This document shows, piece after piece, positions 1 through 28,760 of a stretch of DNA of 64,000 nucleotides (the stretch's first letter is position 1; every line of letters starts with the position of its first letter). The position numbers and the translations under genes are program-made. This DNA is from Candidatus Levyibacteriota bacterium (lineage in GTDB: Bacteria; Patescibacteriota; Microgenomatia; Levybacterales; UBA12049), in the NCBI GenBank assembly GCA_049519175.1, contig JBEKQZ010000001.1, forward strand, positions 335,679 to 399,678. The letters are read 5' to 3'. The notes beneath the pieces are model-generated. The model had not been told where the DNA came from and made no database searches. It saw nothing but the letters and a program-made list of their open reading frames with translations.

Positions 1-678
1 TATGACAAAGCCTCCGTTATTTCCTTAGGAATAATGGCTGCATGGACAGTGGCAATTTCGGGAGGATACAACACGCCCGTTTTTGCTTCAGGAATACTAT
101 TCTTATGCATATTTTTTTCATTGTATTATTTACTCAATTTAAATAAATCTCTTCAGACAATATTAACCAAAGTCTTAATCGTAATCCTAATTATTATTTT
201 TCCAATTTCCATAGCTAGTTTTTATTTTCTAAGAATTCATAATGTCTACGGCGAGCCTCGTCCGGCAACGCAGTTAACATATAGCGTTGAAAAATTATTG
301 CCGGGAGGAAAGAACATATTTGTTTCAAAAGAAATTTATGTAAAACTTAAGGATTTACAGCTGGCGGAACAAATCGCCAAAAAAGAAAATAAACCCTATG
401 CAATATTGCCGGCCTACGCCGGAATGTGGGTTAAATCCAAACAAGAAAATCCCCTACCGATGGACTTTCCTTTTATTACCAACAGCGAACAAGCTCTGGT
501 CCAGCCGTTAATGAAAGCTCTTAAAAAGGATAAAGGAAAAGTAATTATTATCGTAGATAAGTCCAGCTTAAGTCAACCAGAAGATTACTCAAGTGTGGCA
601 ATTTTCCCAATCTCGTTAATGCCTGGAAAATATTATCAAAAGCTCACCGAGACAAAGTATTTCGTTTTATATCAGTAA
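1..678 (+). CDS. Partial CDS (5' end outside window): C-terminal part of a polytopic membrane protein with an extracytoplasmic tail; function unknown, possibly another GT-C-like glycan-assembly protein
   Basis: Frame is open from base 1 through the annotated ORF 34..678, so the gene continues upstream. Several hydrophobic helices are followed by a soluble tail. No recognisable motif. Confidence 0.4.
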   Translation, partial: YDKASVISLGIMAAWTVAISGGYNTPVFASGILFLCIFFSLYYLLNLNKSLQTILTKVLIVILIIIFPISIASFYFLRIHNVYGEPRPATQLTYSVEKLLPGGKNIFVSKEIYVKLKDLQLAEQIAKKENKPYAILPAYAGMWVKSKQENPLPMDFPFITNSEQALVQPLMKALKKDKGKVIIIVDKSSLSQPEDYSSVAIFPISLMPGKYYQKLTETKYFVLYQ

Positions 679-1387
679 CCTTTATATTTAGATAAGTTTT
701 AAACAGCGATATAAGCATCTTGCTCCCATCACTGAAAACATTGTATTTCGATTTCCTAAGAATTTTCAGGTCATTTTTAACCGGTACTTCAACAACTTTC
801 AAACTAAATCTTTCGGAAAAAATTGCCAGTTGAGCGGAAAAGAAAGCGTTTTGACTGTCGCAATATTTAAGTAATGGAAGGATTACTTCTCTTCTCAAAA
901 AAACTGTTCCCTGGGTGTCTCCGACTTTGGTGTTAAAAAAGATTTTTAACAATTGACGGTAGATTTTAGAAGTAACTTTTCTAATAAACGGAGAATAAGT
1001 AATAGACTGGGGATGGGATTTTGAACCAAAAATAATATCATATCTGTCAGCTATTTTTAACATTTCTTTCAAATCCGAAAATCCAAATGGCAAATCAATT
1101 GCAGTTAGTAGAACATATTCTGCTCTTGTGTTAAAGATTGCCGTTTCCATTGCCAATCCGTGTCCTTTTTCTTTTAGCGTAATCACCTTTAAATTGTTGG
1201 CTGTAAATTTTCCTAGCTCTTTTAAGGTATTATCAGTGCTGCCATTCTCGACAATCAAAATTTCGTAGCTTTTCTTTTTTAAGATTCTCTCTAAACTTTT
1301 TTTTATCTCAATTATTTTAGAATGAATAATTTTTTCTTCGTTGTATACCGGAATACAAAAAGATAAATAATATTGATTATTTGGCAT
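644..1387 (-). CDS. Glycosyltransferase family 2 (Dpm1/polyprenyl-phosphate sugar transferase-like)
   Basis: N-terminus CIPVYNEE...ILIVENGSTDNT and a later DLPF..D block are the typical GT2 Rossmann/DXD architecture. TGA stop at 644-646. Confidence 0.85.
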   Translation of the reverse strand: MPNNQYYLSFCIPVYNEEKIIHSKIIEIKKSLERILKKKSYEILIVENGSTDNTLKELGKFTANNLKVITLKEKGHGLAMETAIFNTRAEYVLLTAIDLPFGFSDLKEMLKIADRYDIIFGSKSHPQSITYSPFIRKVTSKIYRQLLKIFFNTKVGDTQGTVFLRREVILPLLKYCDSQNAFFSAQLAIFSERFSLKVVEVPVKNDLKILRKSKYNVFSDGSKMLISLFKTYLNIKVTDIKRNTLSR

Positions 1388-1498
1388 TGTTTAAAATTAT
1401 TAGCTGATAGTTGTTACATTATAACAAAATATGCGAGCAACATTCTATCTGCTTGTGCCGTTTTAGGCAATGTCGTATACTTACAATCATTAAAAGTT

Positions 1499-2149
1499 AT
1501 GTTTACCGACAAAACAATTCTGGCAATTTCTCCTCATACCGATGACGTAGAGCTTGCCTGTGGAGGAGCAATAGCGGAGCTTACCGCTCATGGATCCCGC
1601 GTATATTATGTTGGTCTTTCGGATTGCCAAGACACATTAATCAATACCAGATTTCCAATCGATCAGTTAGCAAAAGAATGTAGGTCCGCTTTAAGAATTC
1701 TGGGAGTTAAAAATAAAGACATTTCTATTTTTCAACATCAGAATAAATTTTTTTGCCAGGATCCTAAGCAAATATTTAAGACTTTAGAGAAATTGCGCGA
1801 CAGTATCCAACCGGACCTTGTTTTAATTCCCGACGTTAATCAAACACATCAGGATCACAAAGTGGTTGCCGAGCAGGCAATTAGTGTTTTCAGAAGAAAA
1901 ACTTCGATGCTTTCCTATGAACAACCATGGAATGACTTGCAATTTACTCCTGATTTCTTTATTCAAATTTCCGCTAAATCGCTCTCTCTTAAAATGAAAG
2001 CCATAAAAACATACAAAACCCAAGTCGCTTTTAAAAGAGGTTACCTTTCCAAAGAATTTATTTATGGACTGGCTGCTGTCAGAGGTGTGCAGATAAACGT
2101 GCAATATGCCGAAGGATTTAAAGTGGTTAAGTTTATCGAAAAACTATGA
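1499..2149 (+). CDS. PIG-L/LmbE-family N-acetylglucosaminyl deacetylase
   Basis: ILAISPHTDDVELACGGAIA... is the PIG-L signature (HxDD, metal-binding). The ORF track starts at 1373, but the first 42 aa are non-conserved and overlap the divergent GT2 gene. ATG at 1499 is the likely start. Confidence 0.8.
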   Translation: MFTDKTILAISPHTDDVELACGGAIAELTAHGSRVYYVGLSDCQDTLINTRFPIDQLAKECRSALRILGVKNKDISIFQHQNKFFCQDPKQIFKTLEKLRDSIQPDLVLIPDVNQTHQDHKVVAEQAISVFRRKTSMLSYEQPWNDLQFTPDFFIQISAKSLSLKMKAIKTYKTQVAFKRGYLSKEFIYGLAAVRGVQINVQYAEGFKVVKFIEKL

Positions 2150-3216
2150 GGGAGTTAAAAATTCTTCTAACAGGCAGTGGTGCGCCCGGATGGGTGAGTA
2201 TTTATAGATGTTTAAAAGCCGCCGACAGAAATTTGGAAATTTTAGGTTGTGATATTTCTTCTAAAACCGCAGGCGGATACATTGCCAAGAAATCATTTAC
2301 TGTCTCTCCGGGAAATTCACCCAAATATATCGGCGAATTACTTTCTCTTTGCGTTAAGGAAAAAGTGGATGTTGTTTTACCGATTACCGACGCGGAATTA
2401 TTGCCGTTGGCAAAAAAGAGCGGTTTGTTCGAAAAGAAAGGAATTAAAATTTGCGTTTCGTCAGTTGCCTCTTTACAGATAGCCGCCGATAAATTATCTC
2501 TTTTTCGATTTTTAGAAAAAAACGGTTTAGGGAACCCTCAATATCAATTGGTAAATTCATGGAAAGGTTTCGTCGTAGCGATAAAAAAACTGGGATATCC
2601 CAAGAAAGCGGTTTGTTTTAAACCAACTATTTCTTGGGGAAGCCGCGGCTTCCGTATTCTTGATCCAAAAATTAATGCTTATACTATTTACATTCAGCAG
2701 AAACCAACCAGCGTCTACACTTCTTTGGAAGAAATGGAAAGAATCCTCAATCAGGCAAAACAGTTCCCACAGTTATTAGTGATGGAATATTTGCCGGGAG
2801 ATGAATATACTGTTGATGTTTTTGTATCTCAAGGACAAGCGCTTTTTGTTATTCCCAGAAAGCGTATTCAAACAACGGGTGGCATTACTACGGAAGGAGT
2901 AGTTGAAAATAATAAAGAAATAATTGCGTTAAGTAAAAAGATAATTGAGAAGTTGGGACTAAATTATTCGGTCGGCGTGCAACTTAAATATAGCATCAAT
3001 GGCAAACCAAAAGTTCTGGAAGTAAATCCCCGCTTGCAAGGGACATCGGTTATTTCTTTTGCAGCTGGAGTAAATTTACCATACCTAACCATTTTGCAAT
3101 CTCAAGAAAAGAAATTACCCAAAATAAAAATTAAATATGGTATCCATATGTACCGCCATTGGGAAGAGATATTCATAAAGAACAAAAAAGTTATTAAAAT
3201 ATTTAATGAAGATTAA
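2146..3216 (+). CDS. ATP-grasp domain ligase (carboxylate-amine ligase, PylC/CPSase-like)
   Basis: Central and C-terminal ATP-grasp blocks (..EYLPGDEYTVDVF.., ..LEVNPRLQGTSV..). Start overlaps the deacetylase stop (ATGA). Confidence 0.7.
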   Translation: MRELKILLTGSGAPGWVSIYRCLKAADRNLEILGCDISSKTAGGYIAKKSFTVSPGNSPKYIGELLSLCVKEKVDVVLPITDAELLPLAKKSGLFEKKGIKICVSSVASLQIAADKLSLFRFLEKNGLGNPQYQLVNSWKGFVVAIKKLGYPKKAVCFKPTISWGSRGFRILDPKINAYTIYIQQKPTSVYTSLEEMERILNQAKQFPQLLVMEYLPGDEYTVDVFVSQGQALFVIPRKRIQTTGGITTEGVVENNKEIIALSKKIIEKLGLNYSVGVQLKYSINGKPKVLEVNPRLQGTSVISFAAGVNLPYLTILQSQEKKLPKIKIKYGIHMYRHWEEIFIKNKKVIKIFNED

Positions 3217-3826
3217 TTGGAGTTATCATATTCATACTAGTTATACGCATGGGCAGAATTCTGTTGAGCAAATTGCCGCATATTGTAAAAAGCTGAAAAT
3301 ACAGGAAATTGCGATTACCGAGCATGTCCGCCGTAAACCTTCTTATCAATTTAATAAATTACGTAATGACATTATTAATGCAGCGGAAAAACATGACATT
3401 CAAATATTTACAGGAATCGAAGCAAAAATTCTTCCCGACGGTTCATTGGACGCGCCAATAGATATCCTTTCTAAAGCGGACGTCGTTATTGGTTCCGTAC
3501 ATAGTTGGCCGGAAAATAAGAGCTTAATGGATGCATATACGCTGCTTGTCAAATCGCCGGCAACAATTATCGGACATCCGAAAATAGTGAATGAAGGACT
3601 TATCAGATTGCTCATTAAATATAAAAAGGTAATGGAGGTAAGTTATAAATATCCATTAAATGATAAGCAATTATGTTTAATACAAAAATTTCCTAAATTG
3701 AAGCTGTCGTTTGGAACTGACGCGCATCAATTAGCGGATATCAAAAACGCCCAAGAATATTTCTATGAAATAAGCAAAAAATATAATTTTACAAATCAAC
3801 TTTGGAAAATTGGCAAAAAAGTATAA
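3206..3826 (+). CDS. PHP-domain phosphoesterase (histidinol-phosphatase/CpsB-like)
   Basis: N-terminal HIHTSYTHG...ITEH metal-binding His motifs of the PHP family. Overlaps upstream gene by 11 nt. Confidence 0.65.
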   Translation: MKINWSYHIHTSYTHGQNSVEQIAAYCKKLKIQEIAITEHVRRKPSYQFNKLRNDIINAAEKHDIQIFTGIEAKILPDGSLDAPIDILSKADVVIGSVHSWPENKSLMDAYTLLVKSPATIIGHPKIVNEGLIRLLIKYKKVMEVSYKYPLNDKQLCLIQKFPKLKLSFGTDAHQLADIKNAQEYFYEISKKYNFTNQLWKIGKKV

Positions 3827-3858
3827 AAATTAAACTGCCCGCGTTTTTAAAAAGTGCG

Positions 3859-3887
3859 TTGTTTACTGACAATAGCTATACTATAAT
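3859..3887 (+). promoter_or_regulatory. Sigma70-like promoter TTGTTT-N17-TATAAT, 6 nt upstream of the ATG at 3894 (possible leaderless transcript)
   Basis: TTGTTT at 3859-3864, 17-nt spacer, perfect TATAAT at 3882-3887. No Shine-Dalgarno fits between -10 and ATG. Confidence 0.35.
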
Positions 3888-3893: not shown

Positions 3894-4850
3894 ATGAATG
3901 TTGCGGTGATAGGCGTCGGACAAATGGGCAGGACTCATGCTAGAACATACGCTGGGATGAAAGATGTATCTTTGGTCGCAGTCTCCGATCTAAACGTCCA
4001 ACTTGGCGAAAAAACAGCCAGAGAATTTAAGACAAAATTTTATCAGGATTATAAACAGATGCTCCAGATGGAAAAAATCGATGCGGTCTCAATCTGTGTT
4101 CCTACGAAGTTTCATTATGAAGTAGCAAAATATACTATTAATAATAAGCTTAATACCCTGTTGGAGAAACCAATCACAATGGATGTTAAAGAAGGATATA
4201 ATTTGTTGGCTATGGCAAAAAAAAATAGGGTAAAGTTTCTGGTCGGGCATATTGAAAGATTTAATCCGGCAGTAATAAAAGTTAAGGAAATGATAGCCGC
4301 AAAAGAATTGGGAGAAATTATTGCGATTATGTCACGCCGCGTCGGAGGCTTCCCTCCACAAATTGACGATGCAAATATCGCCGTTGACTTATCGATTCAT
4401 GATATTGATGTCGTTAACTATTTGCTGGGCGATAGTCCGAAAAAAGTTTATGTCAATAAACAGAAAAATCATATTACTCAAAGAGAAGATTCAGTCGAGT
4501 TTTTTCTAAAATATAAAAAAGCGTCGGCATTTTTGCAAGCTAATTGGGTAACTCCGGTAAAAATTAGGAAACTGAATATTACCGGTAAAGAGGGTTACTT
4601 GGAGATGGATTACATTACACAAGAAATAACCTACTATAAAAGTAATTACCGTAAATTTAAAAAAAGATATAAAACTTTTTCGGATTACGTGTTGGAATTT
4701 TCTAAACCTAAAAAAACAAAAGTTTTAGTCGAAAAAAAAGAACCGTTAAAAGAAGAAATTACGTATTTTTTGAATTGCGTTAGGGAAAATATTCGGATTA
4801 ATTCGCAATTTGCGGTCGAAGCGCTCAAAATTGCATTAACAAATAACTAG
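3894..4850 (+). CDS. Gfo/Idh/MocA-family NAD-dependent sugar-nucleotide oxidoreductase (WbpB-like)
   Basis: N-terminal Rossmann MNVAVIGVGQMGRTHA and an EKP motif. TAG stop at 4848-4850 immediately followed by the next ATG. Confidence 0.85.
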   Translation: MNVAVIGVGQMGRTHARTYAGMKDVSLVAVSDLNVQLGEKTAREFKTKFYQDYKQMLQMEKIDAVSICVPTKFHYEVAKYTINNKLNTLLEKPITMDVKEGYNLLAMAKKNRVKFLVGHIERFNPAVIKVKEMIAAKELGEIIAIMSRRVGGFPPQIDDANIAVDLSIHDIDVVNYLLGDSPKKVYVNKQKNHITQREDSVEFFLKYKKASAFLQANWVTPVKIRKLNITGKEGYLEMDYITQEITYYKSNYRKFKKRYKTFSDYVLEFSKPKKTKVLVEKKEPLKEEITYFLNCVRENIRINSQFAVEALKIALTNN

Positions 4851-5345
4851 ATGATACACAAAACAGCCGATATCCATAGCACAGCGAAAATTGACAAAAC
4901 CAGTTCGGTTTGGAATTGGGTTAAGGTTCGGGAGAAGGCGGTTGTCGGTAAGAATTGCATATTGGCTAAAGGAGTTTACGTTGGGAAAAGAGTTTTAATT
5001 GGTGACAATGTCAAAATCCAAAATAACGCCTCAATTTATGAGGGAGTGACTATAGAAGACGGTGTATTTATTGGTCCGCACGTAGTTTTTACCAATGACA
5101 AGTATCCGTCGGCAATAAATGCTCAAGGCAAAATAAAAAGTGAAAAAGATTGGAAACTCGAAAAAACAATTGTGAAACAGGGAGCGTCAATTGGCGCTAA
5201 TGCAACTATTTTACCGGGAATCATAATAGGTAGATGCGCAATGATCGGAGCCGGTTCCGTTGTGACAAAGGATGTTCCTGATTTTGGACTTGTTTATGGT
5301 AATCCGGCAAAACTGATTAAAAAACTGAAGAGGAGTCATAAATGA
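4851..5345 (+). CDS. Hexapeptide-repeat (left-handed beta-helix) sugar N-acetyltransferase (WbpD/WbbJ-like)
   Basis: Repeated [LIV]G.N..I hexapeptide units throughout. Sits between the oxidoreductase and the aminotransferase. Confidence 0.8.
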
Positions 5346-6430
5346 TTGCGATATCAAAGCTTGAATTAGGTAGAGAAGAGTTGTTAGCAGTATCGAAAGT
5401 AATAAAATCAGGAAATCTGACTCAAGGGAAAAAAGTGGCAGAGTTTGAGCAGGCTTTTGCAAAGTTTATTGGAGCAAAATATGCCGTGGCAGTTTCCAGC
5501 GGAACTAGCGCACTTTATCTAAGCCTATTGGCTTTAGGTATTGGTAAAGGTGACGAAGTCATCACTACGCCATTTAGTTTTATTGCTTCTTCCAATGCCA
5601 TTCTTTACACAGGAGCCAAGCCGGTTTTTGTGGACATAGATGAAAAAACTTTTAATATAGATACTAAATTGATTGAAAGGAGAATCACTAAAAAAACAAA
5701 AGCTATTCTGCCCGTGCATCTTTATGGTCTGCCGTGCGACATAAAAAATATCATAAGCATTGCCAGAAAACACCAGCTGTTTGTAATTGAAGACGCTTGC
5801 CAAGCCCATGGTGCTTCGTTTGGAAATCAAATGGTAGGGACTTTTGGAAATCTTGGTTGTTTTTCTTTTTACGCTACAAAGAATATGACCACGGTTGAGG
5901 GAGGTATGATTACAACCAACAGTCAAAAATTAGCGGAAAAATTACTGTTATTAAGAAACCATGGTTCTAAAATAAAATATCAGCATGAAATTCTTGGATA
6001 TAATTTTAGGATGACTGACCTTAACGCCGCAATGGGCTTAGAACAATTAAAAAAACTGCAGAATTCTAATAAGATTAGAGTTAACAATGCCAGCTATCTT
6101 ACGCAGCATTTGTCAAAAAATAAAAACCTTGAAGTTCCTTTTGTTCCGCCCGAGTTTTCTCATGTTTTTCATCAGTATACAATCCGGTTAGGCGAAAGTA
6201 TCAATCGCACCAAGATAATTGCAGCTTTAGATAAAAAGGGAATACAAACAGGAATTTATTATCCAATCCCAATTCACAAACAAAAACTTTATCAATCCCT
6301 GGGATTTAAAGATAAACTTCCTGTTGCCGAGAAAGCGGCTCAAGCAGTATTATCTTTGCCGGTTCACCCATATTTAACCAAGACAGAACTTAAGCGAATC
6401 GTTTCCGCGCTTTCTTCAATTTTGCAATAA
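5342..6430 (+). CDS. DegT/DnrJ/EryC1/StrS-family PLP-dependent sugar aminotransferase (WbpE-like)
   Basis: Family-typical blocks: [40 protein letters not shown] (Lys-PLP region). ATGA overlap with upstream gene. Confidence 0.9.
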
Positions 6431-11470: not shown

Positions 11471-11488
11471 TATAAGAAATAAGCACCG

Positions 11489-12736: not shown

Positions 12737-12753
12737 ATATTAAGATAATTCTC

Positions 12754-14016: not shown

Positions 14017-14020
14017 GTAG

Positions 14021-15124: not shown

Positions 15125-15187
15125 GCAGCTTGAGCTATTCGCAATAACTAGATATAATACCTACATAATCAAATCTTTAGCTAAATT

Positions 15188-16168: not shown

Positions 16169-16186
16169 GCAACTTACTCACGATTT

Positions 16187-18666: not shown

Positions 18667-19197
18667 ATGAAAGTAATTGATACAAAACTTCAGGGAGTAA
18701 AAGTTATTGAACCGGATAAATTCGATGACAATCGGGGGTATTATCTTAAATCGTTTGAAAAAAAAGCTTTCAGGGAGCAAGGAATTGATTTTGATATTGT
18801 TCAGGTAAGCCATTCTTCTAATCAGGCAAAAGGAACAATAAGGGGAATGCACTTTCAACTTGAACCCTTTGCTCAAGATAAAATCATTTTTTGTGTTAAA
18901 GGGAAAGTGTTCGATATAGCAATAGATTTACGTAAGAATTCCGCTACCTATGGAGAATGGTATGGGTTAGAGCTTTCAGAGGAGAATAAACAGATTTTGT
19001 ATATTCCAAAAGGCTTTGCGCATGGGTTTGAAACTCTGGTTGATAATACGGAGGTAATCTATTTTATTTCAGAAGTATATTCAAAAGAACATGAATCCGG
19101 AATTAAGTGGAATGAAGTTGCCTTTGGCATCGACTGGCCCTTAGAACCTACCGTAATCTCAGAGAAAGATCAAAAGTGGCCTGCATACGAAAGCTAA
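18667..19197 (+). CDS. rfbC: dTDP-4-dehydrorhamnose 3,5-epimerase
   Basis: Classic RmlC blocks: KVIEPDKFDDNRGYY, QVSHSSNQAKGTIRGMHFQ, FDIAIDLRKNSATYGEWYG, LYIPKGFAHGF. Confidence 0.9.
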   Translation: MKVIDTKLQGVKVIEPDKFDDNRGYYLKSFEKKAFREQGIDFDIVQVSHSSNQAKGTIRGMHFQLEPFAQDKIIFCVKGKVFDIAIDLRKNSATYGEWYGLELSEENKQILYIPKGFAHGFETLVDNTEVIYFISEVYSKEHESGIKWNEVAFGIDWPLEPTVISEKDQKWPAYES

Positions 19198-19283
19198 TTT
19201 CAGAAACGTAGCCAACCTCATATCTCATAGGTAGGATTACCGTGTATTGTAGAGTTAAAACTGCTATAATTTCAGTCAATAAT

Positions 19284-20395: not shown

Positions 20396-22573
20396 ATGAA
20401 ACTATCAATAATAGTCGTTAATTATGAGGTTAAAGAAAAAGTTTTAGAGTGTATAAAGTCAATCTATGATGCCAAATCAAAAACCGAGTTTGAAATAATT
20501 GTAGCTGATAACGGGGACACAGAAAGCATCCAGAATGTATTAAAAAAATATTTCCCAAAAGTGATTTATGTCAAAAGTCACAAAAACCTCGGCTATGGTG
20601 GGGGAAATAACTTGGGAGCAACTTACGCTAGGGGTAAATATTTATTTATTCTAAATCCCGATACTTTGGTTTTTAAAAATACGCTTGACGAATTGGTAAA
20701 ATTTCTTGATAAAAATCGAGACGTTGGAATTGTTTCCCCGCTGTTGGTAGACGAGGATAAAAATCCGTTTGCACTTCAGGGAGCAAGAGAATTAACTCCG
20801 TTTAGAGGCATTGTCTGCCTATCGTTTATTGATAAATTGTTCCCGAATAATCATTTTTCCAGAAAGTATTGGTTAAAAGATTGGAAGCACACGCAACTTA
20901 AAGAGGTAGATGTTTGTCCGGGAACCGCATTTATGATTTCAAAAAAGTTATTTAATGAGTTTGGTGGTTTTGACGAGAAGTTCTTCCTCTATTTTGAGGA
21001 GAATGATATTTCTAATCGCGTCAGAAGGTTGGGTTATAAAATATATATACTGACGAAAGCAAAAATATTTCATGAAGTTGGTGCCAGCACAAAGCAGTTA
21101 CAAAATTCCAATTATTTTTTTTTGAAAAGCAGGTACTTATATTTTAAAAAGTACTATGGAATTACAAAAGCCCTGTTGGTTGAGTCCTTTTTGAGGATTA
21201 ATAAGCTATCTTTGCTTATATTTTTTACGTTTTGCTTAGCGTTCTTCTTGCGAATTTATAATTTAACCAATGGAATGGAATTTATCGGCGATCAGGGCTG
21301 GTTTTATATATCGGCTAGAGATTTTTTAATTCACGGGAAGATTCCATTAGTCGGTATTACCTCCAGCCACATTTGGCTGCATCAAGGACCATTGTGGACC
21401 TATATGCTTTCAATCGCGTTACTATTATCTAAATTCAATCCGGTTTCTGGGGCGTATCTGACAGTTTTATTTGGTATAGCAACGACTTTTCTGATGTATG
21501 AATTGGGCAAAGAAATGTTTTCGCAAAAGGTTGGATTAATAGCGGCTTTATTATACGCAACGTCACCTTTGATAGTATCTTTTGACCGGATGCCGTTTGA
21601 CCCAAGTCCGATTCCTTTTTTCACGGTTTTGTATCTGTTCTCGTTAGTAAAATGGCTAAAAGGAAATTTAAATTATTTTCCCGTAATACTTTTTCTATTG
21701 GCTATTCTTTATAATTTGGAGCTGGCGACGTTTACCTTAGCTTTTCCGTTTGTTCTAATTTTTGTTTATGGTCTATTTAAACAATCAGGTTGGGTAAAGG
21801 GGTTACTAAATAAAAAAACAGTATCTTTTTCAATTCTTCTTCCAGTTCTGGTGATGCTGCCGGTTATAATTTATGATTTTTCGCATGGTTTTAAACAAAC
21901 TGTAGTATTTTTGGGTTGGACTTTATATAAGCCATTTAGCTTTCTTTTTAAACATTCGTCAACCAATCTAATTACTAATTTAAAGGTTATTGCCGATTTC
22001 GGACTGATAAATTTACAAAGATTACTTTTTCTAGATAGTGTTTTGTTCTCGTTATTGTTGTTTGCGGCCGGTGTATGCCTACTGTTCTTTCAGGTTTTTA
22101 AAAACAGAAAGCTAAACGATGCGAAATCAATCTTGCTGCTTCTACTAACAATTTCGCTTCTGGGAATAGTCGTAAATCAGACACCTTCAGATGCTTATCT
22201 TCCAATTGCTTTTCCTTTCGTCATTTTCGTATCCGCTATTTTATTTGAATACTTATTTAAAATTAGATTTTTAAAATTGATTGTTGCGATTGTGTTAATT
22301 TTAGTTGTTTTATTAAACTCTTGTGAAATTTTTAGAAATGATTTGACAGCCGAACTAAAAGATAGAATTAGTAGCGCCAATAAAATAATTATGCTTGCGG
22401 ATAATCAAAAATATAATTTAATCGGTAGGGGAGTCGGTAGTCAGTTTAGTAGTTTTACTATGAATTATGAATACTTATTATGGTGGAAGGGCCATCCTGT
22501 TTCGAATGAAAACGTTAGAACTAAAATCGTTGTGTGGGAAACGTCAAAAGGAATTATAATATATAAGCAGTAA
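20396..22573 (+). CDS. Fusion protein: N-terminal GT2 glycosyltransferase domain + C-terminal GT-C-type polytopic membrane domain (ArnT/PMT-like)
   Basis: GT2 core LSIIVVNYEVKEK...ADNGDT...DED in aa 1-250. Then ~470 aa with ~11 hydrophobic helices. A T9 homopolymer lies at 21115-21123. Confidence 0.7.
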   Translation: MKLSIIVVNYEVKEKVLECIKSIYDAKSKTEFEIIVADNGDTESIQNVLKKYFPKVIYVKSHKNLGYGGGNNLGATYARGKYLFILNPDTLVFKNTLDELVKFLDKNRDVGIVSPLLVDEDKNPFALQGARELTPFRGIVCLSFIDKLFPNNHFSRKYWLKDWKHTQLKEVDVCPGTAFMISKKLFNEFGGFDEKFFLYFEENDISNRVRRLGYKIYILTKAKIFHEVGASTKQLQNSNYFFLKSRYLYFKKYYGITKALLVESFLRINKLSLLIFFTFCLAFFLRIYNLTNGMEFIGDQGWFYISARDFLIHGKIPLVGITSSHIWLHQGPLWTYMLSIALLLSKFNPVSGAYLTVLFGIATTFLMYELGKEMFSQKVGLIAALLYATSPLIVSFDRMPFDPSPIPFFTVLYLFSLVKWLKGNLNYFPVILFLLAILYNLELATFTLAFPFVLIFVYGLFKQSGWVKGLLNKKTVSFSILLPVLVMLPVIIYDFSHGFKQTVVFLGWTLYKPFSFLFKHSSTNLITNLKVIADFGLINLQRLLFLDSVLFSLLLFAAGVCLLFFQVFKNRKLNDAKSILLLLLTISLLGIVVNQTPSDAYLPIAFPFVIFVSAILFEYLFKIRFLKLIVAIVLILVVLLNSCEIFRNDLTAELKDRISSANKIIMLADNQKYNLIGRGVGSQFSSFTMNYEYLLWWKGHPVSNENVRTKIVVWETSKGIIIYKQ

Positions 22574-23331
22574 TGATAAGCATAATTATTTTAACCAAAA
22601 ACGAAGAGAAAAATATTTTAGATTGTCTGGAAACCGTTAATTGGGCAGATGAAATAATTATTCTCGATGATAATTCAATTGACAGAACCGTCGAAATCGC
22701 AGAGTCACTAAAATTAAAGCATTTAAAAGTTTTACAGCGGGTGCTGGACGGAGATTTTTCCAAACAACGAAATTTTACTTTGTCGCATGTTAAGAGCGAA
22801 TGGGCGCTGTTTATCGACGCCGATGAAAGAGTAACGCCGCAGCTTCGTAAAGAAATCAATGATTTTATTATTGAAGAGAAAGAAAAGCCGGTATTTAACG
22901 GGATGTATCTAAAAAGACAGGATATGCTTTGGGGAAAATTGCTAAAACATGGTGAGACAGGAAATATAAAACTTTTGCGGTTGGCCAGAAAAGATGCCGG
23001 AATATGGCATGGTAAAGTACACGAACGGTGGGTGATTGAAGGGAAGACCGATACGTTTGAAAATTATTTAATTCATTATCCACATCAAACGGTGGCGGAT
23101 TTTTTAGCCGAAATTAATTTGTATACTACTATCCGGGCTAAAGAACTTTTCGAAAGTAATGAAAAAAGTTCAATCTTCAAAATCATTTTTTATCCAAAAG
23201 CCAAATTTATCCAGAATTTTATTTTCCGGTTAGGTTTTCTGGATGGATTAGAAGGATTAGTGCAGGCAATTCTAATGAGTTTCCATTCTTTTCTGGTAAG
23301 AGCTAAATTATGGACTTACCTAGACAAATAA
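22573..23331 (+). CDS. Glycosyltransferase family 2
   Basis: ISIIILTKNEEKNI...IIILDDNSIDRT and a DADE block. Confidence 0.85.
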   Translation: MISIIILTKNEEKNILDCLETVNWADEIIILDDNSIDRTVEIAESLKLKHLKVLQRVLDGDFSKQRNFTLSHVKSEWALFIDADERVTPQLRKEINDFIIEEKEKPVFNGMYLKRQDMLWGKLLKHGETGNIKLLRLARKDAGIWHGKVHERWVIEGKTDTFENYLIHYPHQTVADFLAEINLYTTIRAKELFESNEKSSIFKIIFYPKAKFIQNFIFRLGFLDGLEGLVQAILMSFHSFLVRAKLWTYLDK

Positions 23332-25079
23332 AAAAACACAAATGCACTAAATATTTACCTCATTTGTTAGCGTTCTTCTATTTTGTCGCAGCTACCATTT
23401 ACATTACTTTTCCCTTAATCTTCCACATGACCAATATGCTTTTTGAAAAGGTTGATGACGCGTATATTTCGTGGATAATTAATTGGGATATCCATTCATT
23501 TACGACTAACGCCTTGAATATCTTTAATGGCAATATTTATTATCCATACCACAACACACTTGCCTATTCCGATAATTATTTAACTTCTGCCGCAGTAGCG
23601 TTCTTTCCGGTTAAAATAGTGGGAGAGCCGGCGTTCGCCTATAACTTTTGTCTTATTTTTTCTTTCATAACTTTGGGTTTTTGTGTTTATCTGCTTGCTT
23701 TATATATTTCCAAAAGCCATCTGTCTTCGATTGCGGCTGGCACTATCGCCGCTTTTTCGCCTTATGCCCTGACGAAAGTAATGCATTTGCAATTATTAGG
23801 TATTTGTTGGGTTCCTCTATCAATATTATTTTTCTTGGTGTTTCTTGATAAAAAACTATTTAGGTATTTTATGATTGCGGTTTTTTTCTTTATTTTACAA
23901 ATGTATAATAGTTTTTTACCGGGTTACTTTATTCTTATTTCCTGTCTAATAATTTTAATTTGTTATTTTTTGACAAAAAAAATAACCTTCAAGCAATTGA
24001 ATATGTCAAAAATTATTCTGACAGGAATTTTTACCTTCTTAATTATCATCCCAATTGTGATTCCTTATTTTCAGGTTTCAAAACAGTTTAATTATGTCAG
24101 AGATATCCGTGATGCCATAAGATTTGCAAACCGTCCTGAATATACTCTTTATCCGGGGTTTACAACCAGACTGCGCGATTTTTTATTAGCCGTTTTTTAC
24201 AAAAATGATAAACATCCAATTACCTATGATGGCTTTATGGGTTTGGTATTTTTCATTTTATCGGCGGCTGCAATTATTTACCGGATTATAAACAAAAAGA
24301 AAAAGTGGTTTTTATTTGATAGCTTTCTTGTCATTGGAATTTTTAGCTATATCTTAAGTTTGGGACCGGCTTTGCAATGGGGAGACCATGTAATTAAGCA
24401 CCCGTTTATAATTCCTTTGCCTTACGCTCTGTTTTACTATCTTGCGCCCGGCTTTAACGGATTTAGGGATTCATCACGTTGGGAGATGTTGTTTCTGATG
24501 TCTTTTTCGATTTCGATTTCGATATTTCTAGCAGTCTTCCTTAAAAATAAAAACCGCTTGCTTAAATTATTTTTCGTTATGCTAATTTGTTTTGGAGTGT
24601 TATGGGAATTTAATCTTCCTTACGCTTACCACCAAGTTCCGACCAAAGAAAATTTCCCCAAAATTTATTATTTCATCAAAAATTTACCTCAACAAGCTGT
24701 AATTGCGGAATTTCCCATTTACAATTGGAGCACTTATCCGCTATTAAATTCCGAAAATTTCAGAGAATATTACGGAACTCTAAGTTTTAGAAAAACAATT
24801 AACGGCGCCTCTGGGTTTAGTCCGCCTCCTTGGCAAATTAAAATAAATTATCTAGTGAATAACTTTCCCAAAAACAACAGCCTTCAATTACTTAAAAATG
24901 TGGGAGTGAATTATATTATTATTCATGCTTGGGAATATGACCAATTGCATAACGCGCGATACACAGCGGAAAATAATTTTGTTTCTTCTGGTGCTGTTAT
25001 CAAATCGGAATTAGATAATAATAGCCAAGTTCAATTTGTTTATTCAACCGATAAAGATTACGTTTATAAAATAAAATGA
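23310..25079 (+). CDS. Large polytopic membrane protein (~11 helices + C-terminal soluble domain); putative GT-C-like glycan-assembly protein
   Basis: Hydrophobicity pattern only. Overlaps the upstream GT2 gene by 22 nt. Confidence 0.4.
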   Translation: MDLPRQIKKHKCTKYLPHLLAFFYFVAATIYITFPLIFHMTNMLFEKVDDAYISWIINWDIHSFTTNALNIFNGNIYYPYHNTLAYSDNYLTSAAVAFFPVKIVGEPAFAYNFCLIFSFITLGFCVYLLALYISKSHLSSIAAGTIAAFSPYALTKVMHLQLLGICWVPLSILFFLVFLDKKLFRYFMIAVFFFILQMYNSFLPGYFILISCLIILICYFLTKKITFKQLNMSKIILTGIFTFLIIIPIVIPYFQVSKQFNYVRDIRDAIRFANRPEYTLYPGFTTRLRDFLLAVFYKNDKHPITYDGFMGLVFFILSAAAIIYRIINKKKKWFLFDSFLVIGIFSYILSLGPALQWGDHVIKHPFIIPLPYALFYYLAPGFNGFRDSSRWEMLFLMSFSISISIFLAVFLKNKNRLLKLFFVMLICFGVLWEFNLPYAYHQVPTKENFPKIYYFIKNLPQQAVIAEFPIYNWSTYPLLNSENFREYYGTLSFRKTINGASGFSPPPWQIKINYLVNNFPKNNSLQLLKNVGVNYIIIHAWEYDQLHNARYTAENNFVSSGAVIKSELDNNSQVQFVYSTDKDYVYKIK

Positions 25080-25164
25080 AATATTTGTTGCAATTGTTTT
25101 ACGTCTTATTTTGCTTACTGGTATTAGCGTTTTACATTCAATACCTTTTTTGCAGAGGAGGTAT

Positions 25165-26787
25165 ATGTTTACATTAGCCATTCTGATTGGCATTTATTCG
25201 TATTTAATTTTCTTCTTGGGCATATTGGGATTGCTTTATCGACCGGTAGTTTTAATAACTACCATTGTATATTTTTCTATCCTTATAATTTTTGCTCAAA
25301 GAAAGCTTAAAGCCGGGTTGACAAACTTTGGGGTTAAGAAATTAGTGACTGAATTTAAAAGTAACAAGCTTTTTAGTTTAACTTTTTTGTTGATTATTTC
25401 TCAAGCGTTGATTAATTTAATTGGAGTTTTTGGCCCGGAAATTTCTTTTGACGCTCTTTGGTATCACTTGACTCTCCCAAGACTTTACATTGCTAAACAT
25501 TTAATCTTTTATATTCCCGGCTCAAATTTATTTTATTCCGCCATGCCAAAGTTGACCGAAATGCTTTATACGGCGGCTTTACTTTTAGCTAATGATTCAT
25601 TTGTCAAGCTAACCCATTTTTCATTTGGCATATTAACTTTAATTGCGATATACAAAATTTCCCGTAGATTTATGTCTAGGGAATTTTCAATTTTAGCCAG
25701 TGCTATTTTTTATGCCAATTTGGTGGTTGGATGGGAGACCATTACCGCTTATGTTGATTTGTCTTGGGCATTTTTTTCGCTGATGGCTTTTTGGGGTTTG
25801 TTAATTTGGTTGGAAAAGCGAAACAAGCGATGGCTGGTGTTGACGGGCATAATGTTTGGTTTGGCAGTCACAGCCAAACTGGCGGCTTTATTTGCTCTAC
25901 CGGTATTTTTGTTGATTTTAGTTTACGATAAGTATTTAGAACATGATAATTGGCTAAATTTAAGCAAAAGGTTCTTTTTATTAGTCATCATTACTTTGTT
26001 AATTCCGCTGCCTTGGCTGATATTTGCATTTGTTAATACCGGCAATCCGGTCTACCCTTATTTTACCAGCCAGCTGGTAGATTCGGGAAAAACACTGGTG
26101 TTGCCAAACTTTAAATATATTCTAACAGATTTATATAGTTTCTTTTTAAAATTGAATGATCCGATTTCACCGATCTATTTAATTGTTTTTCCATTAATTG
26201 TTACTAACTTCAAGAAATTCACCCTGAAAATTAAGATTTTAACTTTATATTGTTTTGGTAATTTTTTAATTTGGTATTTAACACAAGAACCAAGAGGCGG
26301 CAGATTTATTCTCCCGTATCTTCCTGTCTTTTCAATTTTAGCCGCTTATGTAATCGCCAAAGTTCAACGTCATTATTTAAGAAATTTTTTAATCGCGGTG
26401 GTAATTTTTATCACTTTGATTTCAATTGGCTACCGTAGCATTGCCAACGCTAAATTTGTGCCAGTCGAATTGGGAAGAGAAACTAAATCAGCATTTCTGG
26501 CCAAGTATTTGAATTTTTCTTTTGGAGATTTTTATGACACCGACAATTATTTTAAGAATCATCTTGGCAAAAATGACACTGTATTACTATATGGTTTTGG
26601 TAAGCTCTATTACGTTGATTTTAATTTTATTGATTCTAGTTGGGTTAAAAAGGGTGATAAATTTGACTATATTGCTGTTCAAAATAGCGTTTTGCCGAAG
26701 CGGTTTTCGGATTGGCGGCAAATTTACTATAATAAGTTAACTAAAGTTAAGCTTTATACAAAGGGAGAGAAAATATGCGTTTATTAA
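25165..26787 (+). CDS. Large polytopic membrane protein; putative GT-C-like (ArnT/PMT-type) glycosyltransferase
   Basis: Multi-helix N-terminus and a soluble C-terminal ~100 aa. AGAGGAGG Shine-Dalgarno precedes the ATG at 25165. The ORF track's alternative start is 25111. Confidence 0.4.
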   Translation: MFTLAILIGIYSYLIFFLGILGLLYRPVVLITTIVYFSILIIFAQRKLKAGLTNFGVKKLVTEFKSNKLFSLTFLLIISQALINLIGVFGPEISFDALWYHLTLPRLYIAKHLIFYIPGSNLFYSAMPKLTEMLYTAALLLANDSFVKLTHFSFGILTLIAIYKISRRFMSREFSILASAIFYANLVVGWETITAYVDLSWAFFSLMAFWGLLIWLEKRNKRWLVLTGIMFGLAVTAKLAALFALPVFLLILVYDKYLEHDNWLNLSKRFFLLVIITLLIPLPWLIFAFVNTGNPVYPYFTSQLVDSGKTLVLPNFKYILTDLYSFFLKLNDPISPIYLIVFPLIVTNFKKFTLKIKILTLYCFGNFLIWYLTQEPRGGRFILPYLPVFSILAAYVIAKVQRHYLRNFLIAVVIFITLISIGYRSIANAKFVPVELGRETKSAFLAKYLNFSFGDFYDTDNYFKNHLGKNDTVLLYGFGKLYYVDFNFIDSSWVKKGDKFDYIAVQNSVLPKRFSDWRQIYYNKLTKVKLYTKGEKICVY

Positions 26788-27977
26788 AAATAGTATTTAT
26801 TATTTTCATTTTGGCATTTTTCATTGTCGAAGTAGGCAGAGCCCAGTTGTTAAATGGTGTAGCAATTTCTGTCAACGATATTTTATTAGCCGCGGTAATT
26901 TTAGTTTGGATTATAAATCATTTTCTCCATAAGCAGAAATTCGTTCTAGGGAAATTATTCAAACCAATTCTGCTTTTTTCCGCCATTGGTTTAATTTCTC
27001 TACTGCTGAATTTTCCCAACCTTGGCGTTAATAATCTATTAGAATCATCTCTTTACCTAGTTAGGTGGATTGCCTATGCTTTAATTTACGTTATCGTCAG
27101 CGAGTTTGAGTCAAAGTTTAAAAACAAAATTGCTTATTCGTTATTAATTTCCGGTTCGATAGTTGTTGTGCTTGGATATATTCAATTTTTCTTTTATCCC
27201 AGTCTTCGTAATCTTTATTACTTGGGTTGGGATGAGCATCTTTACCGGATGTTCAGTAGCTTTCTAGACCCAAACTATGCGGGAGCATTTTTCGGAATAT
27301 TTTTTCTTTACACAGTTGCTTTTTTAAGAAACTATCTGGTAAAAAAAGAACTAATAAAATCCTTGCTGATAAGTTTAATATCACTTTTTACTTTTGTAGC
27401 GTTGTATTTAACTTATTCAAGAAGCGCTTTGATAATGCTTTTGACAGGAGTAATTATTTACTTAAGTCTTATTGGCAAAAAGAAGTTTATTGCTCTGGCA
27501 ATTGTGCTAATTTTTCTCTCCATTTTTATTTTGCCAAAATCATTTACAACTGAAGGGACAAATTTTTTAAGAGCAGTATCAAGCGAGGCCAGAATTAAAA
27601 ACGCACAAGAAGCGTTAATAGTAATTAAAAATAGTCCTCTTTATGGTGTAGGATTTAATGCTTATAGATATGCCGGAAACAGATTAGGAATAGTTACTGG
27701 ACTGGATTGGCAAGTTTCGCATGGAGGAGCAGGAACCGATAATAGTTTTTTGTTTGTTTTAGCAACAACAGGAATAATAGGCTTAATTATCTATCTTAAC
27801 TTTTTATATAGAATGATTATACTTGGATTAAGCAATCTTCAACGTAATAAATATGCAGTTGTGCTTGTCTCTTCATTGGCGGGTCTATTTGTAAGTAGCC
27901 TATTTATTAATAGCTTGTTCTATGTTTTTATGCTGGAATGGATTTGGATTATCGCTTCGTTTACGGAGAAAAGTTGA
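26775..27977 (+). CDS. O-antigen ligase/polymerase-like membrane protein (Wzy_C/WaaL family)
   Basis: About 10 helices with a larger extracytoplasmic loop carrying LYLTYSRSALIMLL, resembling the conserved Wzy_C motif. Overlaps the upstream gene by 13 nt. Confidence 0.55.
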   Translation: MRLLKIVFIIFILAFFIVEVGRAQLLNGVAISVNDILLAAVILVWIINHFLHKQKFVLGKLFKPILLFSAIGLISLLLNFPNLGVNNLLESSLYLVRWIAYALIYVIVSEFESKFKNKIAYSLLISGSIVVVLGYIQFFFYPSLRNLYYLGWDEHLYRMFSSFLDPNYAGAFFGIFFLYTVAFLRNYLVKKELIKSLLISLISLFTFVALYLTYSRSALIMLLTGVIIYLSLIGKKKFIALAIVLIFLSIFILPKSFTTEGTNFLRAVSSEARIKNAQEALIVIKNSPLYGVGFNAYRYAGNRLGIVTGLDWQVSHGGAGTDNSFLFVLATTGIIGLIIYLNFLYRMIILGLSNLQRNKYAVVLVSSLAGLFVSSLFINSLFYVFMLEWIWIIASFTEKS

Positions 27978-28680
27978 CTTTTAAATCTTTCTCAACTTTA
28001 TTTCCTGCCTGATCGGTAGCCACTATTTTAATTTGGTTATCACCGTTTTGTAAAGGAAGTGTGTAAGAAAAATTATTGCTGTCATCAACCACTGCCCAGA
28101 AACCGTTTACGGTTACGCTAACTCCTTGGTCGGTTTTACCGGTGACGTTAATCGTATTATTGGTGTTGACTTGGTTTTTATTAAAGCCTTGTCCGTCAGA
28201 AGGCGTTGAAATATCCAAAGTCGGCGGCGAATTTTTGTAGACAACATCAATAGTATCCGAAAAGGCACTCTGCTTATTGTTATATTCTGCCTTTGCATCT
28301 ATTTGATTATCCCCAGTGGTTAAATTTTCTTTAAAAACAAAATTGCCATTATTGTCGGCATTAACTTGGTCAACGTTGTTGTTATTAACGTAAAGTAAAA
28401 CTTGATAGTCTTTGGTTGATTGTCCGGTAATAATTATTTGTGCGCTGTTGGTTGCTTGCACTAAAGGGTTAAGAGTCGGTGCCGTAATGTAATTGATTTG
28501 ATTGCTGTTTTGCGTAGTGGTTTGATTCTTGTTGCCGGAAAGAAAAAGGCTAAAGTTCACTAATGCGTCAATGCCAAAGCGGAATAACAAAAATAAAATT
28601 ATCAGAATTCCGATAATGCTTAAAATAGTTGTCCGCTGTGTTCTCTTTTCGAAATTCTTATTCAGTCTTGATCTTCTCAT
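27961..28680 (-). CDS. Cell-surface protein: N-terminal signal-anchor followed by two Ig-like (Big-type) repeat domains rich in Asn/Thr/Gln
   Basis: MRRSRLNK...ILSIIGILIILFLLF anchor. Two similar ~90-aa repeats (..ITGQSTKDYQVLLYVNNNNVD.. and ..VTGKTDQGVSVTVNGFWAVVDD..). Start set at the ATG at 28680 because the longer ORF would overlap the tRNA. Confidence 0.5.
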   Translation of the reverse strand: MRRSRLNKNFEKRTQRTTILSIIGILIILFLLFRFGIDALVNFSLFLSGNKNQTTTQNSNQINYITAPTLNPLVQATNSAQIIITGQSTKDYQVLLYVNNNNVDQVNADNNGNFVFKENLTTGDNQIDAKAEYNNKQSAFSDTIDVVYKNSPPTLDISTPSDGQGFNKNQVNTNNTINVTGKTDQGVSVTVNGFWAVVDDSNNFSYTLPLQNGDNQIKIVATDQAGNKVEKDLKVNFSP

Positions 28681-28685
28681 AATTT

Positions 28686-28760
28686 TGGAGCCGAAGGTGA
28701 GAATCGAACTCACGGCCTAGTGTTTACGAAACACTTGCTCTACCACTGAGCCACTTCGGC
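28686..28760 (-). tRNA. tRNA-Thr (anticodon CGT), CCA encoded
   Basis: Reverse complement folds as acceptor GCCGAAG/CTTCGGC, D-arm GCTCAGTGGTAGAGC, anticodon stem AGTGT/ACACT with loop TTCGTAA, T-arm GTGAG-TTCGATT-CTCAC, then discriminator T and CCA. Confidence 0.9.

Follow-up and report, generated by a model that had tools for sequence, protein, structure and literature searches.

We have analysed a window of 64,000 nucleotides from one contig (JBEKQZ010000001.1, positions 335,679 to 399,678) of Candidatus Levyibacteriota, a Microgenomates lineage of the Candidate Phyla Radiation (CPR, or Patescibacteria). Public entries for proteins identical to those encoded here belong to Candidatus Levyibacteriota MAGs; the 580-kb contig recurs in several metagenomes, and the genome is present in the samples ERZ27250144 and JGI 3300051094. 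The left part of this window is taken up by genes for surface glycans: positions 1-28685 carry 25 genes with hardly any intergenic space. The right part is housekeeping in nature (the atp operon, dnaE, gatA/B, MurT/GatD, pyrG, uvrB, eno, ppsA, glmM and lexA). Gene families were assigned by Pfam and NCBIfam scans of the open reading frames (ORFs) of the window. The gene inventory given by an earlier, sequence-only reading of this DNA proved to be real by Pfam, with six family 2 glycosyltransferases (GT2), one of them fused to a membrane domain of the GT-C type, one family 4 glycosyltransferase (GT4), a Wzx flippase, a Wzy_C-domain protein and a set of sugar-nucleotide tailoring enzymes. That reading described a block of 28 kb. 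The glycan content is as described, but the block extends 4.4 kb past the window start, through flanking DNA of the same contig (L086), to a tRNA-Val(CAC) gene (L086 15367-15439, some 4.0 kb outside the window) that forms the left end of the low-GC glycan block. This left extension contains the remainder of a 536-amino-acid (aa) membrane protein, RmlD, a 242-aa GT2 and a GT4; beyond the tRNA-Val lie lepB, parB, rpmA, rplU, ftsW and ileS, and the GC content is back at 0.40. On the right the locus of about 33 kb is bracketed by tRNA-Thr(CGT) (28686-28760, minus strand, predicted by ARAGORN) and the atp operon. The block had been said to end exactly at this tRNA, which is indeed the right boundary of low GC; the last glycan gene, however, ends at 27977, and a gene for an Ig-like protein intervenes (27961-28680, minus strand), on one common strand with the tRNA-Thr and the atp operon. 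We consider it probable, as one joint explanation, that most of a chromosomal envelope-glycan biosynthesis locus of about 33 kb lies in window 1-28760 and that, judging from its gene families, Wzx-dependent assembly is combined here with extracytoplasmic glycosylation by GT-C enzymes using polyprenyl-phosphate-linked donors.

Four large polytopic membrane proteins stand complete and on their own in the window (599, 668, 589 and 558 aa). To these are added a 725-aa fusion and the 536-aa protein, which is cut by the window edge so that its last 214 aa fall inside (1-678, visible 34-678, plus strand; full gene L086 10710-12320; two transmembrane segments (TM) in the visible part). Many GT-C-like proteins are therefore gathered in one locus, as had been claimed, although the "at least six" additional proteins of 550-670 aa come down to five, four complete and one edge-cut. 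A hydropathy scan finds 8-15 hydrophobic segments per large protein, with about 15 in the 599-aa protein. The Pfam searches and structure predictions that had been proposed for these proteins gave GT-C signatures in three of them and predicted GT-C folds in two that lack any Pfam family. The signatures, all above cut-off, are in the 599-aa protein (6390-8189, minus strand; PTPS_related, PF10131, 41 bits and PMT_2 26.3 bits), the 725-aa fusion (20396-22573, plus strand; PMT_2) and the ArnT-like 558-aa protein (25111-26787, plus strand; 540 aa according to gene callers; PMT_2 38 bits). A homolog of the 599-aa protein, 46% identical, is encoded in a related locus (L089).

The 668-aa (9464-11470, plus strand) and 589-aa (23310-25079, plus strand) proteins matched no Pfam or NCBIfam model, and their assignment comes from predicted structure. 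The GT-C fold is defined by a polytopic membrane part with roughly 7-13 helices in which TM1 is followed by a small extracytoplasmic domain, and in solved GT-C enzymes the catalytic Asp sits shortly after TM1 (PMC11127046). In AlphaFold2 models both proteins form a bundle of helices, and TM1 is followed by a helix-loop region. The 589-aa model (pLDDT 90) matches STT3, DPY19, AglB, PglB and AftA with Foldseek E values from 7e-10 to 2e-3, and its overall architecture is STT3/DPY19/AglB-like (Foldseek E 7e-10 to 3e-4). The 668-aa model joins the GT-C fold to a beta-rich domain at the C-terminus that is similar to carbohydrate-binding modules (CBM); its best structural match is the arabinofuranosyltransferase AftA. 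Shortly after TM1 both families have an invariant Asp, D49 across 60 sequences for the 589 family and D63 across 22 for the 668 family; by position, these are the candidate catalytic residues. Assignment of the 589-aa protein to the STT3/PglB family of oligosaccharyltransferases was considered and rejected despite the fold match, because the WWDYG-type motif (W[WYF]D[YWFN]G) occurs in 0 of the 60 family members.

Both families are sizeable. The 589 family has more than 213 homologs, some of which carry a precomputed PF19830 match. A word-indexed protein search gave only 22 relatives of the 668-aa protein, while an exhaustive HMM search gave 743 representatives of clusters at 50% identity with E<=1e-3, 185 of them with E<=1e-30. 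Several members of the 668 family have N-terminal extensions of 120-240 aa in which no Pfam domain is recognised; the possibility that these are fused GT2 domains found no support, a Pfam scan of ten longer members being uninformative. Pfam scans of all members of the two families returned no informative domain, and sequence-profile searches of both against all PDB chains returned nothing meaningful. Alignments with hhalign of the 668 family to the 589 family, and of the 536-aa protein to the 589 family, detected no relationship, and blastp among the large proteins found weak PMT_2-level matches only. By sequence, the large membrane proteins are not recent paralogs of one another. The tally for the locus is thus five predicted GT-C-fold glycosyltransferases (599, 668, 725-fusion, 589 and 558 aa), the 668-aa and 589-aa proteins being placed there by their models, and one unclassified protein (536 aa).

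The GT2 enzymes fall into two sorts. The soluble 247-aa GT2 at 644-1387 (minus strand; Pfam Glycos_transf_2) has PDB sequence matches to ArnC (1e-9, residues 8-217), GtrB sll0501 and DPMS; its top NCBIfam matches, to PgfS, ArnC and dolichyl-phosphate hexose transferase, all lie below cut-offs. The 242-aa GT2 left of the window behaves in the same way: in both proteins the whole catalytic domain matches ArnC, GtrB, DPMS and PgfS, below the NCBIfam cut-offs, which makes them candidate polyprenyl-phosphate sugar synthases. The GT2s of the locus that are not ArnC-like bear a likeness to enzymes of glycan elongation or protein glycosylation. For the GT2 half of the 725-aa fusion the likeness is to chondroitin synthase, GalT1, TarS, a rhamnosyltransferase and GlfT1, and for the 252-aa GT2 (22573-23331, plus strand) the best solved relatives are GmaR and SunS. 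The notion that every GT2 next to a GT-C gene is a GtrB-like donor synthase was rejected for these two, neither of which is GtrB- or ArnC-like by sequence. Three further GT2 genes encode a 408-aa membrane protein (8254-9480, plus strand; Glycos_transf_2 and Glyco_transf_21, 4 TM) and proteins of 367 aa (14021-15124, minus strand) and 322 aa (17647-18615, plus strand), and the GT4 gene of the window lies at 19242-20387 (plus strand).

Coupling of GT2 with GT-C proteins is indicated by two overlapping gene pairs, at 9464-9480 (408-aa GT2 and 668-aa protein) and at 23310-23331 (252-aa GT2 and 589-aa protein, an overlap of 22 nt), together with the fusion. In the latter, GT2 occupies residues 1 to about 260 and the membrane domain about 273-725; this architecture is common to more than 110 full-length homologs, and public annotation already names the protein a GT2/ArnT-like glycosyltransferase. 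The 408-aa GT2 seems to have had a similar form. Its residues 1-310 are 58-69% identical (tblastn) to the GT2 half of GT2::PMT_2 fusions of 861 and 866 aa in two related loci (L090 164-2749 and L089 7112-10004), and residues 343-395 are 55% identical to a separate 110-aa ORF in L089. From these alignments, it appears that the 408-aa GT2 has lost a GT-C domain of about 550 aa in this genome.

The locus holds both a flippase and a Wzy-like protein. The former is a Wzx-type MOP flippase (16187-17650, plus strand; about 13 TM; Pfam Polysacc_synt_3 194 bits, NCBIfam MOP flippase) and the latter a 400-aa Wzy_C-domain protein (26775-27977, plus strand; 10 TM; Wzy_C 58.6 bits). The Wzy_C protein has a weak match to an oligosaccharide repeat unit polymerase and no sequence relative in the PDB; its sequence is compatible with either a polymerase or a ligase/oligosaccharyltransferase type. 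Its neighbour, the 239-aa Ig-like protein, is a predicted type-II membrane protein: a short basic N-terminal stretch precedes a single TM, and a linker rich in T, N and Q leads to two Ig-like domains (Glucodextran_B/Big). The Ig-like gene starts 5 nt after the 3' end of the tRNA-Thr and overlaps the end of the Wzy_C gene by 17 nt, and it adjoins the Wzy_C gene in all five relatives that were compared (L006, L007, L090, L092 and L094). The protein might work together with the glycosylation machinery or be one of its substrates.

The remaining genes encode cytoplasmic enzymes of sugar metabolism. At the left lie a PIG-L/LmbE-family de-N-acetylase (1499-2149, plus strand; PIG-L 64 bits; BshB1-like 82 bits, below cut-off), for which the longest ORF starts with TTG at 1373 and gene callers give 216 aa; an ATP-grasp ligase (2146-3216, plus strand; ATPgrasp_Ter, ATP-grasp_3 and PylC-like_N in Pfam, PRK12767-like below cut-off in NCBIfam), from whose domains we infer that an amino acid or carboxylate may be joined to an amino sugar; and a PHP-domain phosphoesterase (3206-3826, plus strand; Pfam PHP). 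They are followed by a GFO/IDH/MocA oxidoreductase (3894-4850, plus strand) that is UDP-GlcNAc 3-dehydrogenase-like (NCBIfam NF040723 294 bits, the cut-off of 450 not being reached), a hexapeptide-repeat sugar N-acetyltransferase of the NeuD/PglB/VioB type (4851-5345, plus strand; Pfam and NCBIfam) and a DegT/DnrJ/EryC1 sugar aminotransferase (5342-6430, plus strand; Pfam 445 bits; PseC-like 346 bits, below cut-off). Farther to the right are two NDP-hexose C-methyltransferases (11489-12736, Methyltransf_13/_14, and 12754-14016, both on the minus strand and assigned by Pfam), a short-chain dehydrogenase/reductase (SDR) of the epimerase/dehydratase/reductase kind (15188-16168, plus strand; Pfam and NCBIfam) and RmlC, dTDP-4-dehydrorhamnose 3,5-epimerase (18667-19197, plus strand; TIGR01221 212 bits, above the cut-off of 155.75).

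Taken together, these genes suggest that the locus probably builds a complex surface sugar polymer with an unusually large set of membrane-embedded sugar transferases. The steps of such a pathway, as inferred from the family assignments, could run as follows. In the cytoplasm, UDP-GlcNAc would be 3-oxidised, transaminated and N-acetylated to give a 2,3-diacetamido sugar (by enzymes scoring below curated cut-offs), while a dTDP-6-deoxyhexose/rhamnose branch with RmlC, RmlD and the two C-methyltransferases might lead to a methyl-branched 6-deoxyhexose. The trio of PIG-L, ATP-grasp and PHP proteins would form a third branch, in which an amino sugar is de-N-acetylated and then probably re-acylated. 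Soluble enzymes of the GT2 and GT4 families, together with the fusion's GT2 half, would assemble an oligosaccharide on a polyprenyl phosphate carrier, and the ArnC/GtrB-like GT2s (644-1387 and the 242-aa protein outside the window) would load single sugars on polyprenyl phosphate. Lipid-linked intermediates would be flipped by Wzx. Outside the membrane the Wzy_C protein would polymerise or ligate the glycan, and the five GT-C enzymes may add side sugars or pass the glycan to its final acceptor, which would be a wall-linked polymer or surface proteins.

Several points weigh against this scheme. The idea that a GT2 feeds its neighbouring GT-C comes from gene order alone. No GtrA-type flippase, small GacJ/WpsB-like activator or other small membrane ORF was recognised in the gaps between genes, and in domain scans no gene of the 33 kb has a Bac_transf or Glycos_transf_4 (MraY/WecA) domain or belongs to the Wzz/chain-length regulators. 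A locus without a diphosphate-forming initiating transferase would fit polyprenyl-monophosphate assembly, or else the initiating enzyme is encoded elsewhere. The 536-aa protein matches no Pfam or NCBIfam family, and the 589-aa and 668-aa proteins are linked to GT-C enzymes by comparison of predicted structures only, so that the GT-C fold of these two rests on models. Most NCBIfam assignments of the sugar enzymes are under their curated cut-offs, and the identities of the sugars are family-level guesses.

The gene order of the locus was compared with that of relatives, of which L006 and L007 were obtained by an AtpD-based scan of reference genomes and the others by homolog look-ups. L094 is a near-identical strain; AtpD identity to L006, L007, L090 and L092 is 77-87%. 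The other loci of the AtpD scan (L008-L085) had no matches to the membrane-protein genes of the locus and showed scattered GT2 and DegT matches only. All four of the more distant relatives share the order atpC, tRNA-Thr(CGT), Ig-like protein, Wzy_C protein, PMT_2 GT-C. L090 and L092 continue with a GT-C of the 589 family and then the 252-aa GT2; L006 has the 252-aa GT2 and not the 589-family gene, and L007 diverges past the PMT_2 GT-C. The GT2::GT-C fusion and the GT4 come next in L006 and L090, and the segment that these two have in common with the window begins with the GT4 gene (44-47% identity); the GT4 was not seen in L007 or L092. In L092 the GT-C half of the 725-aa fusion has a 471-aa gene to itself, and the GT2 half is not there. 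Extra genes are inserted in some relatives, a 280-aa ORF in L006 and M23 and GT87 genes in L092. On the 1.6-Mb chromosome of the latter (OZ246394.1), the separate 471-aa GT-C and the extra GT87-family GT-C, which stands between the PMT_2 gene and Wzy_C, are found at L092 5032-6447 and 11380-12516. The state of domain fusion and the number of GT-C genes thus vary within the lineage. The gene order in L094 is the same as here, and adjacency to the tRNA-Thr is established for L006, L007, L090 and L092. A core beside the atp operon can be recognised that consists of the GT2::GT-C fusion, the 252-aa GT2, the 589-aa GT-C, the PMT_2 GT-C, the Wzy_C protein and the Ig-like protein; the core proteins are 39-68% identical across the relatives, in which AtpD is 77-87% identical.

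Distinct from this core is a segment that differs even between near-identical strains. Comparison with L094 by blastn and tblastn shows that a different segment of 2.4 kb (L094 3411-5787) replaces 4.7 kb of the window (11470-16182), between flanks of 94-97% DNA identity. The window segment contains the two C-methyltransferases, the 367-aa GT2 and the SDR. The sole methyltransferase of the L094 segment is 41% identical and its GT2 60% identical to the counterparts here, and the second methyltransferase (12754-14016) and the SDR are absent from that strain. The segment looks like an exchangeable specificity cassette within a conserved locus, and its exchange marks the part of the locus likeliest to set antigenic or receptor specificity (phage or host recognition). 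Between species the distal half varies, and the tRNA-proximal core is conserved: L090 has other tailoring genes and the 861-aa GT2::PMT fusion, and L089 has the 866-aa GT2::PMT_2 fusion and an 883-aa GT4::PMT_2 fusion.

The composition of the locus had suggested an island ending at a tRNA. The GC content is 34.2% at 1-28685 and 40.1% at 28761-64000, and the difference is significant at every codon position (left/right: GC1 0.394/0.489, GC2 0.305/0.341, GC3 0.327/0.381). The figures quoted earlier, 23% and 13% GC against 45%, turn out to be tails of the distributions; in 60-nt windows the medians are 35% on the left and 40% on the right, the left 5th percentile is 21.7%, the right 95th percentile is 51.7% and the minimum is 10%, at 13082. 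This most AT-rich stretch of the window (13040-13140, minus strand; 10% GC in 60 nt) codes for a Lys/Asn-rich linker (…KKIKNNKEKILNFVKKESKKGK…) of the second C-methyltransferase and is ordinary coding sequence, with no non-coding insert. If the block had been acquired horizontally, it would have come from a donor richer in AT and entered the chromosome at the tRNA-Thr(CGT) 3' end, with later loss of the integrase. Such an origin would account for a GC content 6 points under that of the flanks that differs in GC1 as well as GC3, for the tRNA-Thr 3' end that faces the block and the second tRNA at its far end, and it would go with an internal cassette that has clearly been exchanged between strains. 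What tells against it is the position of the core, which a test for tRNA-linked presence/absence polymorphism found beside the tRNA-Thr, at the junction with atpC, in L006, L007, L090 and L092, down to 77% AtpD identity. The same GC dip accompanies it in L006, L007 and L090 (0.311 vs 0.365, 0.319 vs 0.361 and 0.342 vs 0.408), and a similar one is seen in 2-kb windows of L092. Scans of every ORF of at least 100 aa found no integrase, transposase or phage genes in the 33-kb locus, in accord with the earlier remark that no integrase is present, and no repeat of the tRNA-Thr 3' end (last 14-30 nt, 1-5 mismatches) was found in the window or in the left flank, L086. The tRNA-Val at the far end, like the tRNA-Thr, has neither mobility genes nor repeats beside it. 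Nor is the block variable next to the tRNA, as an island might be: variation lies in the internal cassette, and the tRNA-proximal genes are the most conserved ones. With three tRNAs within the 64-kb window, tRNA adjacency by chance is not improbable. We therefore consider the island reading very improbable, and for any recent event largely refuted. Since the core is kept at the same tRNA-Thr/atpC junction with its GC dip in these four genomes, we read it as a vertically inherited chromosomal locus and not as a mobile island, and its lower GC as a trait of the locus throughout the lineage and not as a mark of recent transfer. The earlier reading had itself offered an old, fixed block, or a composition reflecting the kind of genes, and this alternative fits the relatives better. 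Low GC is a familiar trait of surface-polysaccharide loci.

The acceptor of the glycan is less certain, and two proposals share most of the probability. In the one to which we incline, without giving it an even chance, the product is a wall-linked polysaccharide, a secondary cell-wall polymer comparable with the rhamnose-rich cell-wall polysaccharides (CWPS) of lactococci and streptococci or with mycobacterial arabinogalactan; its backbone or repeat unit would be made on a lipid carrier and would be extended, decorated and attached outside by several GT-Cs. RmlC in the locus and RmlD just outside the window are in keeping with this. So is the set of ArnC/GacI-like soluble GT2s, Wzx and GT-Cs, which is the four-component scheme of the streptococcal group A carbohydrate (GAC) and the lactococcal polysaccharide pellicle (PSP), even though the similarity to GacI/WpsA is at the superfamily level only. 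The lack of a diphosphate-forming initiating transferase in the locus agrees with the polyprenyl-monophosphate assembly proposed for lactococcal PSP. The CBM-like domain of the 668-aa protein and its resemblance to AftA, and the weak resemblance of the fusion's GT2 half to a rhamnosyltransferase and GlfT1, also favour a wall polymer. A GatD/MurT pair at 41942-43974 (minus strand; lipid II isoglutamine amidation) suggests that this CPR bacterium has peptidoglycan chemistry of the Gram-positive type, which suits a wall acceptor and makes a lipid A-core less plausible as acceptor for the Wzy_C protein. On the other hand, neither an LCP-family ligase, an ABC transporter nor a TagO-type initiator is found in the locus, and RmlA and RmlB are not in view.

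The other proposal, which we judge possible but somewhat less probable, is a general O- (or N-) glycosylation of S-layer, pilin or other surface proteins, in which the Wzy_C protein would be an O-oligosaccharyltransferase and the STT3-like 589-aa GT-C a protein glycosyltransferase. The Wzy_C family includes the O-oligosaccharyltransferases PglL, PilO and WsaB, and in structure the 589-aa protein is matched best by the protein glycosyltransferases STT3, DPY19, AglB and PglB; fold matches among GT-Cs, however, cannot discriminate acceptors, and the missing WWDYG-type motif of the 589 family tells against such a role. The 252-aa GT2, which is most like GmaR (flagellin O-GlcNAc transferase) and SunS-type peptide glycosyltransferases, the PMT_2 and TMEM260-like matches of the 558-aa protein and the neighbouring conserved Ig-like membrane protein with its T/N/Q-rich linker all speak for protein glycosylation. 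A precedent is described in PMC12041528, according to which GT-C enzymes of streptococci glycosylate Ser/Thr-rich regions of membrane proteins. The CBM-like domain and AftA match of the 668-aa protein point instead to a glycan acceptor, and there is no S-layer or pilin gene in the locus.

The kind of system is already known. Multi-component transmembrane glycosylation combined with lipid-linked repeat-unit assembly has been described for lactococcal PSP and streptococcal GAC (PMC10821137, PMC8035078), and GT-C transmembrane glycosylation in general is an established paradigm (PMC8035078, PMC10821137, PMC11127046). With the lactococcal cwps/PSP genes (WpsA/B, WpsG, WpsH/I, WpsJ) and GacI/J/K/L the locus has in common soluble ArnC/GtrB-like GT2s, a Wzx-type flippase, cytoplasmic elongation by GT2 and GT4 enzymes, rhamnose-pathway genes, several extracytoplasmic GT-Cs, a polymerase-like membrane protein and a division into conserved and strain-variable parts. 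PSP/GAC-type loci have two to three GT-C proteins; here there are five (possibly six), one fused to a GT2 and two in Pfam-less families, no small activator of the GacJ/WpsB type, no LCP ligase and no backbone pathway with an ABC transporter was recognised, and the system, in a CPR host, is known from its genes alone. In the number of serial GT-Cs the locus resembles the mycobacterial and corynebacterial system for arabinogalactan and lipoarabinomannan (EmbA/B/C, AftA-D, GlfT1/2, WbbL), but it lacks a UbiA-type polyprenyl-phosphoribose synthase and DprE, has Wzx and Wzy_C proteins and other sugars, and sequence identity is about 6-12%. Wzx/Wzy loci for O-antigen or capsule share with it the flippase, the Wzy_C protein, nucleotide-sugar genes and GT2/GT4 enzymes, and they too have GC below the genome average and exchangeable cassettes; unlike them, it has no initiating phosphoglycosyl transferase and no Wzz/PCP protein, and it has far more GT-Cs. 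As the organism gives no sign of a lipid A-core, a WaaL-type acceptor is unlikely. Loci for O-glycosylation of S-layers and pilins carry Wzy_C-type oligosaccharyltransferases (WsaB/WsfB, PglL, PilO), and further likenesses are the monoderm-type organism, rhamnose and methyltransferase genes, a lipid-linked glycan and a flippase. We know of no such system with multiple GT-C enzymes, however, and no target protein was identified in the present locus. To tRNA-linked islands the likeness is limited to a block of deviant composition beside a tRNA 3' end, since integrase and flanking repeats are lacking and the block is at the same site in all relatives examined.

For the CPR, the literature searched contained nothing on GT-C enzymes of Patescibacteria or on "Levyibacteria" beyond general comments that CPR genomes have multiple dolichol-phosphate mannosyltransferase-like genes (PMC4736985, PMC6031116). 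Also not found described there were a core of three GT-C-fold genes and Wzy_C fixed beside the atp operon across this lineage, GT2::GT-C fusions as a conserved architecture, the two Pfam-less GT-C-fold families and the strain-level cassette. The locus provides a concrete, lineage-conserved gene set for a major surface glycan of Levyibacteriota. It adds two Pfam-less GT-C-fold families, one with about 740 clusters at 50% identity, and a fusion kept in well over a hundred homologs. It also advises caution in scanning genomes, as a low-GC block flanked by a tRNA proved not to be a mobile island in this case. CPR bacteria are thought to live attached to other cells; few have been cultivated and, to our knowledge, their surface chemistry is almost unknown. 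As a speculation that we think unlikely, though worth stating, the conserved core may make a previously undescribed envelope glycoconjugate typical of Microgenomates-type CPR, with the fusions as single-polypeptide transmembrane glycosylation machines and the 668 and 589 families as new glycosyltransferase families of CAZy. If this were true, fused GT2::GT-C proteins would couple sugar transfer in the cytoplasm to transfer outside the membrane.

A few genes of the right half of the window deserve mention. A DedA/VTT-domain membrane protein is encoded at 55007-55663 (minus strand); members of this family have been implicated in recycling undecaprenyl phosphate across the membrane, which would be relevant to a cell with many lipid-linked donors. 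At 59872-62317 (minus strand) a cupin-type glucose-6-phosphate isomerase, a mannose-6-phosphate-isomerase-like cupin and a phosphoglucosamine/phosphoglucomutase stand in a row, likely a module for the supply of sugar precursors, 30 kb away from the glycan genes. A GGDEF-domain protein (38137-38952, minus strand) lies between dnaE and gatB and overlaps both; cyclic-di-GMP signalling genes are uncommon in small CPR genomes. The 228-aa ORF at 47337-48023 (plus strand) overlaps tRNA-Asp and is probably spurious. Finally, a 144-aa protein with a match to the Pfam family "putative phage metallopeptidase" is encoded at 63015-63449 (minus strand), amid housekeeping genes.

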